Shown one piece after another: positions 5,410-44,897 of a stretch of DNA of 64,000 nt (positions within the stretch are counted from its first letter, which is position 1; the number at the start of each line of letters is the position of its first letter). Location: the NCBI GenBank assembly GCA_963797685.1, contig CAWCQK010000017.1, positions 129,652-193,651 of the forward strand, read 5' to 3'. Source of the DNA: an uncultured Chloroflexia bacterium. GTDB taxonomy: Bacteria > Chloroflexota > Limnocylindria > Limnocylindrales > CSP1-4. The notes beneath the pieces are model-generated. The model saw nothing but the letters and a program-made list of their open reading frames with translations. It searched no databases and was not told the DNA's origin. The position numbers and the translations under genes were made by a program.

Positions 5410-7201
5410 TTGGCAGAGATCGGGCAGGTCCTCGGTGGCCGGTATCGACTGGTCGAGCTGCTCGGCAGCGGCGGGATGGCGACCATCTATCGGGCCACCG
5501 ACACCGGCCTCGGTCGCGACGTCGCGCTGAAGCTCCTCCGTCCGGAGTACCTGCGCGACCCTGACTTCTCGTCCCGCTTCCGGCTGGAGGCCCAGGCCGC
5601 CGCCTCGCTCAGCCACCCGAACATCGTCCACGTCTACGACTACGGGGAGGACCCGAGCGGGCCGTACATCGTCATGGAGCTGATCGACGGCGAGGACCTC
5701 GCCACGATCCTTCGACGGAGCGGCGCGCTCCCGCCCCGCCAGGTGGCACGCATCGGAGTCGGCGTCGCCCGGGCACTCGCGGCCGCTCACGCCCGCGGCC
5801 TGGTCCATCGCGATATCAAGCCGGGCAACGTGCTGATCGGCTCCGACGGTGCGGTCAAGGTCGCCGACTTCGGGATCGCTCGGGCCGTCGCCGAGGCGCA
5901 GGTCACCCTGCCCGGAACGACCCTCGGATCGGTCCACTACTTCAGCCCCGAGCAGGCCCGCGGCGAGCCGGCCACGACCTCGTCGGACATCTACAGCCTC
6001 GGCATCGTCCTGTACGAGATGCTGACCGGCTCTCGCCCGTTCGAAGGGGACAGCGCCGCCTCGGTGGCTCTCGCCAGGCTGACCGGGCCGATCCCCGACC
6101 CGGCCGCCGTCCGACCATCCGTCCCGGCGGACCTCGCATCGATCACCCGGCGCGCGCTGGCGCTCGATCCGAAGGACCGCTGGCCGTCGGCCGCCGTCAT
6201 GGCCGATGCGCTCGATGCCACGCTGGCCCCGGGTGGCGGCGCTGCCGCGGGAGCGGCTGGGGTTGCCGCGGCCGGAGCGGCGGGAGCGGCGGCAGCCGCG
6301 CCGGGAGAGGCCGGCGATACGGGCGGTTCGAAGGCTGGCGCCGCTGCAGCCGGCGCGCTGGTCGGCGCGACGGTCGTCTCCGCGACCGCGCGCCCGAACC
6401 CGGCGGCGATCCCGTACTCCCCCGATGCGTACGTCGGCGCCGACGGAGAGACGACGACCGGCACCCCACCCCCACCGGCCGGCACGACCGGCGGCACGAC
6501 CGGGGGCCCGGACGACGACGGCAAGACGAGTCCGCTCGTGTGGGTCGCCGGCATCGTCGCGATCCTGCTGCTCGCTGCCATCGCATTCCTGGTCTTCCAG
6601 CTGACCTCGGGCGGCTCGGGAAGAGCCGCGCAGGTGACGGTCCCGAACCTCGTCGGCCAGACCTCGGCCGCGGCGACCGCGCAGGTCTCGGCCCTCGGGC
6701 TGACCCTCACTCCGACCGGGGTGGCCTCCTCGGATCAGCCCGAGGGCACGGTCCTGTCGCAGGACCCGCCCGCCGGAACGAAGGTGGACGCCGGCAGTGA
6801 GGTCAAGGTCAACGTCGCGACCGGGCCGGGGACGGTCCCGGTCCCGAGCATCACGAACCTCGACGAATTCGAGCGCCCTCCAGGCGCTGTCCGACGCCGG
6901 GTTGCGCATCGGCGTGCGCACCGAGGCCTTCGATCCCACGATCGCTGTCGGTCTCGTCTCGGCCCAGAACCCGTCGGGCGGCATCGTCGTCGCGAAGGGG
7001 ACGCCGATCGACTACACGATCTCGAAGGGTCCCGAGCCGACGCCGTCGCCCACTCCGACTCCGACGCCCACGCCGACTCCGACGCCCACTCCCAAGCCGA
7101 CGCCCACGCCGACACCGACTCCGACGCCCACGCCGACACCGACTCCGACGCCCACGCCGACACCGACTCCGACGCCGACCGACACGCCCGCGCCGTCCTG
7201 A
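5410..7201 (+). CDS. PknB-like Ser/Thr protein kinase with TM helix, two PASTA domains and a Pro-Thr tail; apparent +1 frameshift at about 6865-6880
   Basis: Kinase motifs ([33 protein letters not shown]), a TM helix ([20 protein letters not shown]), and PASTA 1 ([23 protein letters not shown]...). PASTA 2 continues only in the next frame ([19 protein letters not shown]...TISKG, ORF 6797-7201). Confidence 0.85.
7036..7185 (+). repeat. tandem in-frame (Thr-Pro)n repeat, about 24-nt DNA unit ccgactccgacgcccacgccgaca
   Basis: Translates to [49 protein letters not shown] at the kinase C-terminus. The DNA unit recurs at least three times nearly identically. Confidence 0.85.
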
Positions 7202-40988: not shown

Positions 40989-42407
40989 TCAGATCGCGAT
41001 CTCGATGGCCTCCCAGCCTTGGTTGCCGTGACCGCCGGCGTACCCATCGTTCAGGATCGTCCGGTCGTTGATCTCGATGTACACCAGGTAGCAGCACGGC
41101 ACGATGAGCGGGTCGCTCCACGGGTCCCACACGAACGAGGTGGGCACGGGATAGCCCTGTTCGGCGGTGTTGCCGCCGTAGGTCTTCGAGAGAGGGACGA
41201 CCGCCCCGCCCGGGTAGAGCGGCAACGGGACGCCACTCACCGGGACCGACAGGCCGGAGTTGCCCCGAGCCGTCACCGCGACCCCGCTCAGGTTCGGGTC
41301 GTAGGCATGGACGGTGACCCGGATCAGCCCGTCGCCACGCTTGACCTTCGCGCATTTCAGCAATTCGGTGGTCCCGTCGGGCTTCTGGAGCTCCAACGTG
41401 ATCGTCGGTCGCGGCAGCGGGAACGGACCCGAGTTGTCGACCCGAACAGGCTGCGGCCCGCTCACCCGCGTGATCGAGCCATCGCGCACACGGAGCCGGA
41501 CGTAATACAGGCCGTCTGCCGACGGCGTCGGCCAGTGGACGAGGACCTTCTCGCCGACCGTATTCGGACCGCCGTCCGAGTCGCAGATCTGCGAGACATC
41601 GAACCAGCCCGGGTCGACCCCGGTCGAGGTGCTCCGGCTGCATGGCGCGAGCCATGGGAAGGACGAGATCGTGTTGTAACCCGATGTCGAGCCGACGAAC
41701 GGGAGATACGTCCCGCTCGGTCCGGTCGACGAGACCTCGACCAGGTACTGGGTCGCCGACGGCATGTTGAAGATGCCGCGCAGCTCGGCGTAGTCACCGA
41801 AAGGGTGATCACCGATCCCTGCCGCCGGGTTCGGGGAGGGGGTGTGACCCGGTCCGACGCTGGGACCGTTGCCAAGTCCCAGGGCGTCGATCTGGCTGAT
41901 CGGGATGTCGCCGACCCGCGTGATGAGCGGTCGCGGCGGGCAGAGCTTGCGGCAGACCTTCCGACAGCGCGCCGAGCAGAAGAAGCGACACAGCTGATGA
42001 CAGAAGCGTTCGAGCTCGAGCTTCTTGATCGTCTGGTTCCAGGCCTTCGCGTCGCCAGCCGCCTGGATCTCGAGCAGGCGCTTGACCGTGTCGGGCTTCG
42101 CCACGAGCGCGGCCAGCGCGTGGGCGAAGTCGATCATCTCCTCGACGCCGACCGGTTCCTTCGGTGGCTCGGGGCAGAAGCTCAGGCAGACGCCGCCACA
42201 GCGCTTCTCACAGAAGTAGCCGCAGATCACCTCGCAGCGCTCGGACAGCCCCGCCTGATCAAGGGCGGCCTCGAACGCCGCCCCGTCCTCCGCCTCGTAG
42301 GCCTCGAAGGCCTTGCGGAACGTCGCCGGGTCCTTGGCGAGCTGCTCCGCGGCTTCCGCGATGCTCCTCAGTTCGTCGATCGGCTCGTCACCGGACAGGG
42401 TCGCCAT
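40989..42407 (-). CDS. hypothetical 472-aa protein with two (C-x3)5-C-P cysteine ladders and a large beta-rich C-terminal region
   Basis: AAGGAG SD 5 nt before the ATG at 42407. No signal peptide. CEVICGYFCEKRCGGVCLSFCP and CHQLCRFFCSARCRKVCRKLCP are each flanked by Ala/Glu/Lys-rich helical segments. The C-terminal 300 aa are Gly/Pro/Ser/Thr/Val-rich and non-repetitive. Confidence 0.75.
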   Translation of the reverse strand: MATLSGDEPIDELRSIAEAAEQLAKDPATFRKAFEAYEAEDGAAFEAALDQAGLSERCEVICGYFCEKRCGGVCLSFCPEPPKEPVGVEEMIDFAHALAALVAKPDTVKRLLEIQAAGDAKAWNQTIKKLELERFCHQLCRFFCSARCRKVCRKLCPPRPLITRVGDIPISQIDALGLGNGPSVGPGHTPSPNPAAGIGDHPFGDYAELRGIFNMPSATQYLVEVSSTGPSGTYLPFVGSTSGYNTISSFPWLAPCSRSTSTGVDPGWFDVSQICDSDGGPNTVGEKVLVHWPTPSADGLYYVRLRVRDGSITRVSGPQPVRVDNSGPFPLPRPTITLELQKPDGTTELLKCAKVKRGDGLIRVTVHAYDPNLSGVAVTARGNSGLSVPVSGVPLPLYPGGAVVPLSKTYGGNTAEQGYPVPTSFVWDPWSDPLIVPCCYLVYIEINDRTILNDGYAGGHGNQGWEAIEIAI

Positions 42408-42518: not shown

Positions 42519-44897
42519 TCAGGCGTCTCGGTCGTAGAAGGGCATCGCGGCATCGTCTGGCCGGTCGAGGTCGGCGATCAGCGCCGCGACGCCGATGTCG
42601 CCCTTGTACAGGCTGTCCCGGCGGAGGGCGTTCTCGCGCACGCTCGTGACCGCCTGGCCCGCCAGATCTCGTGCGCGCGCCAGCCAGAGCCGATCGCCGC
42701 CGGCACGATGGAGGTTGACCAGCGCGTAGGCACGACCGGCCAGGCCGCAGCACAGGTCGCCCGGGACGGGATGGCTCTCGTACGCCGTCCAGGCGGCCCG
42801 TTCCGCGAGAGCCGCGTAGCGATCGTCACCGAACGCACGGGCCGCCGCGGTCCACAGGAAGACCATCCCCGCGGCACCGTTGCACCATGTCGCCGCGAGC
42901 GACCCGTCGTCGGGTGGACCGACCTCGCGGGGCCAGACCAGACCGCGCCCGCGAGGGACCCCGAACCGGGCCAGCTCGTCGAGACGGGCGGCCATCGGCG
43001 GGACAGCGGACCCGCTCGACTCCGCCCAGCGCAGCTGCGCATGGAGGAAGCCCGACCAGCCGTGCGCCGCACCGAGGTAGGAGACGGCGTCATCAGGGCG
43101 ATCCCCCGCGGTCTGCGCCCCGAGCTCGTCCATGGCCGAGAGCTCGGTCCACAGGTTCGTCGCCAGCCGGTTGCCGAGCTCGATGAGCTCCGACCGCTCG
43201 GCCGCGTCCTCCGGCAGCGCGTCGAGGAGCATCGACAGCCCGAGCAGGATCCCGCTGCGTCCGAACGAGACGTCCCGCGCGGGACCGCCGTCGCCCAGCG
43301 CCGACACCATCCCGTGGATCGCCATCGACCGGTCGCTCGCATCGCCACGGGCGTTCCCGATCAACGCTTCGGTCAGGAAGACCCCGGTCGCGCTGTGGTG
43401 GATCCCGGTCGTGCCGAAGTCCTCCGGCGTGATCTCGAGCGCCACGTTGACGAATGCCTCGTCGGTGCCGAGCGACGACAACGCCTTCATCGACCACACA
43501 TCGGCGAGCGCCAGGAGCCGCTCGTCGTCGCGAGACATCGCGATGCGCATGATCCCGTGGGCGATCCCGGCCGCCCCGAGATTGACCGACGCCCGTGGCG
43601 CCTCCAACGGGGAGGCCAGCAGCGGGCCGGCCGGTGACAGCCGCTCGAGGACATCGGCGAGGAACAGGTCCGTCGCGGACGAACTCGCGTCGTGGCGTGG
43701 CCCCGGCGCCCGGTCCAGGTCGGAACGAGCCGCGGCGCGGTAAGCCTCGAGGAGATCGGCGGTCGCCGCGAACCGATCGGCTGGGTCCTTCGACAACGCC
43801 CGCCGCAACACCGCCTCGACCGCGGGCAGGTCGCCCGTGTCGTGGCTCGCGAACGGCAACGGCGCCTCTTCCAGCAGCTGCCGACGCATCTCGTCGGGCT
43901 CGAGCGAGAAGCTGTGGGTGTAGCCGCCGGTCAGCAGCCGGTAGAGCATCGCGCCCAATCCGTATTGCTCGCTTGCCGCGGTGAGCACCGACGCGCCGCG
44001 ACCCGCCTGCTGAGCGGCCGCCGATTCGGGCTCCATGAAGAAGTCCACCCCGCCGCGCGGGACCCCGTGCTCGTCACCCAGCGTCGCCAGCCCGAAATCG
44101 ATGACGGTCACCGATCCGTCGCCGGCAACGAGCACGTTGCTGGGGTGGACGTCGCCGTGTAGCACGCCGCGCCCGTGGAGGTCGGCGTACGCCTCGATGA
44201 TCCGCTCGCCGAGCTCGAGCAGCCGTTCTCGACCGTCCGCTTGCGACAGGCGTCGAAGCTCGGCCGCGGCTGACTCGGCGTCCGCTCCGGGATGCCAGCT
44301 GACGACCAGGTAGGTGCGGCCGTCCGCCTCCCCGATCTCGATCAGGCGAGGCGCGACGCGTCCATCGAGCGCACGCAGGATCCTGGCTTCATGCCCGAAA
44401 AGCGCGGAGCTGCCTGAGCCCGCGCGGCCGACCTTCAGGGCGACGTCGCGCCCCTCCTCGTCGTGCGCGAGGTAGAGCTGCGTGTCGATCATGACCTGGA
44501 CCGGATGGACGACTCGGAACGGGCCGACCGCCGCCCCCTCGGCGAGCACGGACGCCTCGATCGGCTCGGCGAACGGCAAATCGGCCGGGACGAGGAACCC
44601 GTCAGCGAGGAGGTCCTTGAGCACCGGGTACGAGCGCTCGAGGGTCTCGCGCGGATCGAGCTGGCGTTCGCTGGCGAACCCGAGGACCGCATCGACGATC
44701 CGGGTCGGCGTCCGGAACGAGCCGAGCAAGAGCGCCGTGTTGGCATCCACGATGCTCGAGGTCGAGCGGGCTCGCGGCCGGGTGACCGCGTGGTCGCCCT
44801 GGTGATAGGTGAACTGAGCGCGGATGTCCTCGGGGAGCTCCTCGACCGGTGTCAGCTCGACGTCGGGCGGCAGCAGCATCGGGCCGGCGATCGTCAT
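42519..44897 (-). CDS. Ser/Thr protein kinase fused to a LanC-like cyclase domain, with a PqqD/RRE-like N-terminal region
   Basis: Kinase motifs DVALKV, HGDVHPSNVLV and VIDFGLA. LanC motifs GAAHGWSG, TWCNGAAG and LCCGLAGR. N-terminal SIVDANTALLLGSFRTPTRIVDAVLGFASERQLDPRETLERSYPVLKDLLADGFLVP resembles PqqD-type RREs by eye. The ATG at 44897 is 7 nt after the upstream stop. Confidence 0.85.
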   Translation of the reverse strand: MTIAGPMLLPPDVELTPVEELPEDIRAQFTYHQGDHAVTRPRARSTSSIVDANTALLLGSFRTPTRIVDAVLGFASERQLDPRETLERSYPVLKDLLADGFLVPADLPFAEPIEASVLAEGAAVGPFRVVHPVQVMIDTQLYLAHDEEGRDVALKVGRAGSGSSALFGHEARILRALDGRVAPRLIEIGEADGRTYLVVSWHPGADAESAAAELRRLSQADGRERLLELGERIIEAYADLHGRGVLHGDVHPSNVLVAGDGSVTVIDFGLATLGDEHGVPRGGVDFFMEPESAAAQQAGRGASVLTAASEQYGLGAMLYRLLTGGYTHSFSLEPDEMRRQLLEEAPLPFASHDTGDLPAVEAVLRRALSKDPADRFAATADLLEAYRAAARSDLDRAPGPRHDASSSATDLFLADVLERLSPAGPLLASPLEAPRASVNLGAAGIAHGIMRIAMSRDDERLLALADVWSMKALSSLGTDEAFVNVALEITPEDFGTTGIHHSATGVFLTEALIGNARGDASDRSMAIHGMVSALGDGGPARDVSFGRSGILLGLSMLLDALPEDAAERSELIELGNRLATNLWTELSAMDELGAQTAGDRPDDAVSYLGAAHGWSGFLHAQLRWAESSGSAVPPMAARLDELARFGVPRGRGLVWPREVGPPDDGSLAATWCNGAAGMVFLWTAAARAFGDDRYAALAERAAWTAYESHPVPGDLCCGLAGRAYALVNLHRAGGDRLWLARARDLAGQAVTSVRENALRRDSLYKGDIGVAALIADLDRPDDAAMPFYDRDA

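Follow-up and report, generated by a model that had tools for sequence, protein, structure and literature searches.

A candidate split, recognition-element-dependent lanthipeptide-type synthetase encoded by a three-gene cassette in a Chloroflexota genome

Lanthipeptides are classified by the architecture of their synthetases, and a 2026 paper (PMC13509491) recognises six classes. Here, a stretch of 64,000 nucleotides (nt) from an uncultured Chloroflexia bacterium (Limnocylindrales, CSP1-4; assembly GCA_963797685.1, contig CAWCQK010000017.1, positions 129,652 to 193,651) was analyzed, and this whole stretch is referred to below as the window. A gene on its minus strand (42519-44897) encodes a protein of 792 amino acids (aa) with a kinase-like and a LanC-type cyclase domain; upstream of it are genes for a predicted phospho-Ser/Thr lyase and a putative precursor peptide. 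We read this three-gene cassette, with a probability of about 0.72, as a split lanthipeptide-type synthetase that depends on recognition elements, lies outside the six described classes and has the 792-aa protein as its kinase-cyclase subunit.

Several described systems are relevant for comparison. Class IV enzymes (LanL, namely VenL, SgbL and CuvL) carry a lyase domain, a Hanks-type Ser/Thr kinase and a LanC cyclase with zinc ligands in one polypeptide. The cyclase of class III enzymes (LanKC) has no zinc ligands. In class V (LxmKY, CaoKY), a HopA1-like lyase and an APH-like kinase, LanK, are both stand-alone proteins, and the cyclase that defines the class is unrelated to LanC. ProcM belongs to class II, has a different dehydratase domain and includes no kinase, lyase or recognition element; LanM enzymes of its type have CCG instead of CHG at the third zinc ligand. 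This CCG has been called a ProcM-like motif and linked to promiscuity (PMC13509491). Class V pathways often have no known LanC cyclase (PMC11186320). Class VI (LanKCb), reported only in Streptococcus, combines a truncated lyase and a truncated cyclase in one protein that acts on short substrates (PMC10676316). According to a 2023 structural paper (PMC10604976) and a 2020 review (PMC8341899), no lanthipeptide enzyme of classes II-V has an identifiable recognition element (RRE) of the kind found in enzymes for ribosomally made peptides that carry post-translational modifications (RiPPs), and leader recognition in classes III and IV is RRE-independent. Class III enzymes bind an amphipathic leader helix on their kinase and lyase domains (PMC10604976).

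The kinase-cyclase protein

The gene and its predicted domains are located in the window as follows:
42519-44897, minus strand: gene of the RRE-kinase-LanC protein (792 aa; ATG at 44897, stop codon at 42519-42521; open reading frame (ORF) and translation, Pfam Pkinase and LANC_like)
44583-44897, minus strand: RRE-like winged-helix domain, residues 1-105 (AlphaFold2 model and Foldseek)
43698-44546, minus strand: Ser/Thr protein-kinase-like domain, residues ~118-400 (Pfam Pkinase, 3.7e-14)
42522-43685, minus strand: LanC-type cyclase domain, residues ~405-792 (Pfam LANC_like, 4.3e-18)
42744-42752, minus strand: predicted zinc motif Cys716-Cys717-Gly718 (LCCGL confirmed in the translation at 42741-42755)

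The motifs VALK, LHGDVHPSN, DFG, GAAHGWSG, WCNGAAG and LCCGLAG were all confirmed in the 792-aa translation. Residue conservation was estimated from an alignment of 34 full-length homologues with 44-88% identity. The kinase residues K155 (VALK), E170, H247-G-D249, N254 and D267 (DFG) were invariant in 34/34 homologues, and the same was true of the cyclase residues H612 (GAAHGW), C672 (WCNG), C716, C717 and G718. On this alignment, the kinase and cyclase motifs are a conserved signal rather than chance. The search of PDB sequences related the kinase domain to StkP and PknB (1e-19 to 1e-15). For the cyclase half it returned only LANCL1, LANCL2 and one plant LanC-like protein, and neither NisC nor CuvL was matched. 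About 390 residues follow the kinase domain, and within them the Pfam LANC_like match spans positions 100-348 of a 350-position model.

In the HMMER alignment of the cyclase half with human LANCL1 (3e-11), GAAHG was placed on GAAHG, WCNGA on WCHGA and LCCG on LCHG. The LCHG motif of LANCL1 carries the Cys-His zinc ligands, so the third motif would occupy a zinc-ligand position with Cys replacing His. The predicted ligands are thus Cys672, Cys716 and Cys717, a three-cysteine site with the CCG of ProcM-type LanM enzymes, and the invariance of H612, C672, C716 and C717 across phyla argues for a working zinc site. The first-pass annotation of this gene, made from the sequence alone, had proposed both the CCG three-cysteine site and an intact kinase core; the alignment with LANCL1 and the invariant residues of the 34 homologues agree with it on both counts.

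Hanks kinases usually have an HRD...N catalytic loop. The loop of the 792-aa protein (window 44100-44160, minus strand) reads HGDVHPSN and is of the HGDxxxxN type. The kinase domain also matched Pfam APH (1.6e-11) and ABC1, and its best overall matches remained PknB and StkP.

In order to assess the N-terminal region, residues 1-132 were modeled in AlphaFold2 with 25 homologues. The model (predicted local distance difference test score, pLDDT, 90) contains strands at residues 14-17, 36-39 and 48-50, followed by helices at 52-62, 67-77 and 82-98. The Foldseek search against the PDB gave TigE, PqqD, MibB, TbiB1 and ThcOx among the leading matches (probability 1.0 each), together with three lysine methyltransferases; nearly all of the best matches were recognition elements of RiPP enzymes. 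Further matches included lasso-peptide B1, TbtB, TglHI, McbB and MadB, and the probabilities ranged from 0.75 to 1.0. The template modeling scores were 0.65-0.71, normalised on small targets. The domain shares the order of three strands and then three helices with the PqqD-like RREs (PqqD, TbiB1, ThcOx, TigE and the domains inside NisB and MibB), which are its best structural neighbours. It differs from them in a short extra helix between strands 1 and 2, in its fusion to a kinase-cyclase and in the failure of the Pfam PqqD model to match it at E-values up to 10. The stretch DANTALLLGSFRTPTRIVDAV...ADGFLV was present in the translation. Pfam and NCBIfam gave nothing significant for residues 1-125 in 25 family members; the weak Pfam matches were DUF7782 in 9/25 members and ThcOx in 4/25, and the HMMER search of PDB sequences with the N-terminal profile returned chance-level matches alone. 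Residues 1-105 are therefore assigned a predicted RRE fold, which is supported by fold and not by sequence.

The NCBIfam LanL model (NF038150) matched the 792-aa protein only at profile positions 186-807 of 851, with 180.4 bits against a cutoff of 650, and the LanKC model (NF038151) reached 89 bits against a cutoff of 575. Judging from the model, residues 1 to ~105 do not form a lyase. The first-pass annotation had described the N-terminus as an RRE-like domain standing in place of the class III/IV lyase domain. The position of the LanL match and the RRE-like predicted fold bear this out for the polypeptide itself. The lyase is not lost from the system, however, since it is encoded by the adjoining upstream gene, and so the unit to be considered is a three-gene cassette and not a lyase-less fusion.

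More than 600 full-length homologues of the 792-aa protein were found, mostly 785-815 aa long with a query coverage of 99-100%, and so the in-frame ATG at 45110 is not the start. The 863-aa version beginning there was also rejected on account of a switch in the phase of third-position GC content (GC3) at ~44900 and an overlap with the gene ending at 44905.

The predicted separate lyase and the putative precursor peptides

Two further genes, co-oriented with the kinase-cyclase gene in the window, complete the cassette:
44905-46083, minus strand: predicted stand-alone phospho-Ser/Thr lyase gene (392 aa; AlphaFold2 model, Foldseek, position 5' of the kinase-cyclase gene)
45784-46083, minus strand: N-terminal RRE-like domain of the lyase, residues 1-100 (hhalign to the kinase-cyclase N-terminal profile)
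44908-45498, minus strand: predicted catalytic half of the lyase, residues ~196-392 (invariant Lys/Lys/Arg/Tyr)
46106-46471, minus strand: putative precursor peptide (121 aa, 8 Cys; GC3 phase, Shine-Dalgarno sequence, homologous ORFs)

No Pfam or NCBIfam family was found for the 392-aa protein. Pfam HopA1 matched 1/33 members of its family with an E-value of 0.23, and the HMMER search of PDB sequences with the profile of the 392-aa protein gave chance-level matches alone. The AlphaFold2 model (pLDDT 85) was analyzed using Foldseek, and all 25 top matches belonged to the OspF/SpvC/HopA1 superfamily with a probability of 1.0. They included LxmY of the class V lexapeptide dehydratase (8.8e-6), HopA1 (9.3e-6), the lyase domain of CuvL from class IV (1.6e-4), the lyase domains of the class III enzymes SalKC, ThurKC and PneKC, and the phosphothreonine lyases SpvC, OspF and VirA. 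The model thus points to a phospho-Ser/Thr lyase fold.

The residues K223, K254, R264 and Y271, within the motifs FKLYVSP, FK and RPDKxVxYF, are invariant in the lyase family. Their spacing (31, 10 and 7) is close to that of Arg187, Lys219, Arg229 and Tyr236 of CaoY (32, 10 and 7), which are experimentally important there (PMC9486802). The four lyase residues may thus be the equivalents of the CaoY residues, a mapping based on spacing alone. Residues 1-100 of the lyase were aligned to the kinase-cyclase N-terminal profile by hhalign over 84 columns (E-value 8.9e-5, probability 60%), and the model of this domain has the same order of strands and then helices. BLASTP between the two N-termini found nothing, and the relation was visible in the profile-profile comparison only. 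On this alignment, both enzymes seem to carry related recognition-like domains.

The cassette was then traced by a genome scan with one genome per species, in which 352 loci were found and the best 80 were analyzed; counts of loci given below refer to these 80. The 392-aa gene was present in 80/80 loci and was located directly 5' of the kinase-cyclase gene on the same strand in 79/80. The sole exception was L017 (Cupriavidus sp. amp6), in which the lyase and precursor genes are found downstream of the kinase-cyclase gene and are encoded on the other strand. The median gap between the two enzyme genes was 5 nt, with 11 overlaps.

The putative 121-aa precursor begins at a GTG (46471) that is preceded, at a distance of 7 nt, by the Shine-Dalgarno sequence GAGGAGG, and its GC3 phase fits coding. 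Pfam and NCBIfam gave nothing significant for it. It contains a conserved N-terminal motif, MPDFEARKLRVQFPCG, a variable core rich in Cys, Ser and Thr, and a conserved amphipathic helix at the C-terminus (LGVLREQLEAQLKEV...). At the same position, 58 precursor-like ORFs with the N-terminal motif were found in 54/80 loci, with the consensus M-x-F-E-x-K-x-L-R-V-Q-L-P-C-G. Their lengths range from 81 to 247 aa (median 127 aa), and the median peptide has 7 Cys and 16 Ser+Thr. The ends of these peptides are conserved and the core is hypervariable and at times repetitive (CASHPxLTPC about eight times, CTPSPP four times, CTKCTATH three times, ATPVTC several times). Examples outside the window are the ORFs at 5966-6799 of locus L070, 6292-6705 of L029 and 2022-2645 of L066. 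In eight loci (L007, L009, L012, L031, L047, L051, L060 and L065), two or three divergent tandem precursor genes precede one lyase/kinase-cyclase pair, and this fits a substrate-tolerant enzyme. The diverse and sometimes multiple precursors per locus are also in line with broad substrate tolerance.

The position of Ser and Thr relative to Cys was counted in 41 non-redundant precursors, leaving out the conserved N-terminal motif. It was revealed that 153/293 core Cys (52%) have Ser or Thr at +4, against a background of 17%; the shuffle test of this excess, with the N-terminal motif kept in, gave z = 15.8. Trp or Phe was enriched at +2 of the core Cys. In the 121-aa peptide of the window, six of the seven core Cys follow the C-x3-S/T rule. 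This pattern fits tandem thioether rings from Cys(i) to a dehydrated residue at i+4, which is a prediction from the peptide sequences.

A comparison of the cassette with the described classes indicated that it matches none of the definitions of classes III, IV, V and VI. It joins class IV parts, the Hanks-type kinase followed by a LanC with zinc ligands, to a class V part, the stand-alone HopA1-like lyase, and adds recognition elements, which class II-V enzymes are said to lack (PMC10604976). As in class IV, dehydration would proceed by phosphorylation and subsequent elimination, and LanL is the best NCBIfam model for the 792-aa protein, although it scores far below the cutoff. In contrast to LanL, an RRE-like domain is found in place of the lyase domain, the lyase is a separate protein most like LanY/HopA1, and the third zinc ligand is predicted to be Cys and not His. 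The presence of invariant zinc ligands excludes LanKC. With class V the cassette shares the separate lyase, whose best structural match is LxmY, and the CaoY-like spacing of Lys, Arg and Tyr; the HGDVHPSN loop and the Pfam APH match of the kinase also recall the APH-like class V kinases. However, this kinase is of the Pkinase type and is fused to a true LanC in one protein, both enzymes bear RRE-like domains, and Lys stands in the lyase where CaoY has Arg187. Class VI synthetases likewise contain a kinase and have no full N-terminal lyase domain, whereas in this cassette the cyclase retains its full length and its zinc ligands, an RRE fold is predicted for the N-terminus and the lyase is complete and separate.

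The first-pass annotation had taken the RRE-kinase-LanC order for an uncharacterised one. No description of such a protein paired with a separate lyase was found in the open-access and bioRxiv literature, though subscription journals may hold one, and the statement in PMC10604976 that class II-V enzymes have no RRE is in line with this. Each domain is of a known kind. In the searchable literature, however, no account was found of their arrangement, of RREs used by a pathway of the kinase type, of the split lyase or of the layout of the precursors. By the convention of the field, the cassette would count as a new lanthipeptide class.

Proposed pathway and rival explanations

It is established how the domains are predicted to fold, that the catalytic residues (candidate ones in the lyase) are conserved, that the genes are linked and that the precursors share a pattern. 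The three-gene set probably makes thioether-ringed peptides. In the proposed pathway, the N-terminal winged-helix domains of both enzymes would dock the N-terminal motif of the precursor, probably as an added beta-strand. The kinase would phosphorylate Ser and Thr of the variable core, and the lyase would eliminate the phosphate, leaving dehydroalanine or dehydrobutyrine. Core Cys would then be added to the dehydro residues at the predicted three-cysteine zinc site of the LanC domain, forming thioether rings, many of them from Cys(i) to i+4. By analogy with class V (PMC9486802), the lyase and the kinase-cyclase probably act as a complex. The C-terminal helix of the precursor might be a second recognition element, a speculation that draws on the leader helix of class III (PMC10604976).

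Several points weigh against this pathway. The binding mode, the order of steps, the two-enzyme complex and the product are all deduced from genes and models. The E-values of the RRE matches in Foldseek are modest (8.5e-3 to 0.1), and sequence searches link neither the N-terminal domain to PqqD nor the upstream protein to HopA1 or LanL, the weak matches being limited to 1 to 9 members. The position of the catalytic acid His106 of SpvC seems to be Tyr225 in the lyase. The length of the precursors and the coiled-coil-like helix at their C-terminus are unusual for lanthipeptides, and the precursor subfamilies of L014, L016, L024 and L029 do not follow the +4 rule at all. The flanking ORFs of the 80 loci include neither a protease nor an exporter that is conserved with the cassette, so it is not certain that a small product is released.

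The length and helical tail of the precursors (81-247 aa) and the missing protease and transporter would also fit a signalling or protein-repair module rather than a natural-product pathway. In such a module, the kinase and the lyase would generate dehydroamino acids within a protein, and the LanC-like domain would either attach an external thiol or modify a protein that is kept intact in the cell. Eukaryotic LanCL enzymes add an external thiol to dehydroamino acids, and the restriction of the PDB sequence matches of the cyclase to LANCL1, LANCL2 and the plant protein, with NisC and CuvL unmatched, points in the same direction. Such a module is nevertheless unlikely: the conserved partner of the enzymes is a small ORF whose Cys-rich core is hypervariable and lies between conserved recognition-like ends, a typical RiPP layout, the fixed spacing of C-x3-S/T agrees with rings formed within one peptide, RRE folds are characteristic of RiPP enzymes, and some loci contain 2-3 divergent precursor copies. 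The absence of the C-x3-S/T motif from some precursor subfamilies, as well as the cysteine ladders without nearby Ser/Thr in an adjoining 472-aa protein, could instead indicate a system limited to dehydration, where Cys would serve for metal binding or disulfides and the LanC domain would have a structural or substrate-binding role. This is distinctly unlikely given the invariance across phyla of His612, Cys672, Cys716 and Cys717, which argues for a working zinc site, and the 472-aa family is also found in places where the cassette is absent.

If the protein were an ordinary LanL (class IV) or LanKC (class III) enzyme, with a lyase domain that had escaped notice or had been separated from it by a frameshift or an incorrect start codon, this would explain why LanL is the best NCBIfam model (180 bits) and why a lyase is encoded directly upstream. 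This explanation is hardly tenable and is already contradicted. The LanL match begins only at profile position 186 and remains far below the 650-bit cutoff, residues 1-105 are modeled as an RRE and not as a lyase, and the zinc ligands exclude LanKC. The catalytic region of the lyase forms the C-terminal part of a protein of its own and is preceded there by an additional N-terminal domain. A stop codon lies between the two genes in 79/79 loci and their frames differ in 52/79, so a frameshifted LanL is ruled out.

A split synthetase dependent on recognition elements thus remains the preferred reading. It would assign a function to the 392-aa family, which has no Pfam domain; this family comprises 1548 clusters at 50% identity with E-values up to 1e-3 and 1059 with E-values up to 1e-30. 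A wider proposal, which we consider evenly balanced, is that the loci represent an undescribed seventh architectural class in about ten phyla, many of which are known chiefly through metagenomes of soil and other environments. It would be the first kinase-type class with RREs, carried by a kinase-cyclase and a separate lyase, and its precursors would combine a short leader at the N-terminus with a helical follower at the C-terminus. Its tandem rings from Cys(i) to the dehydro residue i+4 would run in the reverse direction to most lanthionines, and a ProcM-like three-Cys zinc site would act on hypervariable cores. A compact three-gene module with a defined docking motif and diverse cores could serve in the engineering of thioether-stapled peptides.

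Distribution and neighbouring genes

The best 80 of the 352 loci were found in Chloroflexota, Actinomycetota, Acidobacteriota, Gemmatimonadota, Nitrospira, Cyanobacteria, Betaproteobacteria, Planctomycetota, Verrucomicrobia and WPS-2, i.e., in about ten phyla. The closest locus (96% identity) belongs to a metagenome-assembled genome of the Chloroflexia/Limnocylindrales type. The family is large and reaches groups little explored for peptide natural products, namely Acidobacteriota, Chloroflexota, Gemmatimonadota and Thermoleophilia. Cultured carriers include Micromonospora, Nonomuraea, Kribbella, Conexibacter and Cupriavidus, which makes the reading directly testable.

Besides the cassette, the following genes were annotated in this part of the window:
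46632-47471, minus strand: BTAD/SARP-type regulator (Pfam BTAD, 1.3e-18), perhaps a local regulator, outside the core of the cassette
47631-50887, minus strand: FtsX-type ABC permease with ATPase, upstream of the cassette
50902-52125, plus strand: HisKA_3 histidine kinase, upstream of the cassette
40989-42407, minus strand: hypothetical cysteine-ladder protein, 472 aa, 111 nt downstream of the kinase-cyclase gene

All-against-all clustering of the flanking ORFs of the 80 loci revealed that, beyond the three genes, none is common to more than 14 loci, and no methyltransferase or other conserved neighbour was found among them. The BTAD/SARP-type regulator accompanies the cassette in 10/80 loci and the FtsX-type transporter in 2-6/80; the regulator, the transporter and the histidine kinase are local additions at most.

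The 472-aa protein, for which Pfam and NCBIfam gave nothing significant, contains two Cx3Cx3Cx3Cx3Cx3C ladders (CEVICGYFCEKRCGGVCLSFC and CHQLCRFFCSARCRKVCRKLC). It was considered as a second substrate or accessory protein and rejected as a core component, being found with the cassette in 6/80 loci only. Its family stands alone in Edaphobacter and Mucilaginibacter, so the protein is probably not part of the cassette. This family is widespread and unusually conserved, with 53-63% identity across Acidobacteriota, Bacteroidota and Thermoleophilia.

Apparently 'long' kinase-cyclase matches in five loci were rejected, as they were due to an adjoining unrelated kinase/beta-propeller protein. In the Thermoanaerobaculia locus L046 (10207-13968, plus strand), this protein is encoded after the cassette, is 1253 aa long and contains PD40 beta-propeller repeats as well as two kinase domains, and the Thermoanaerobaculia loci L049, L054, L061 and L063 are similar.

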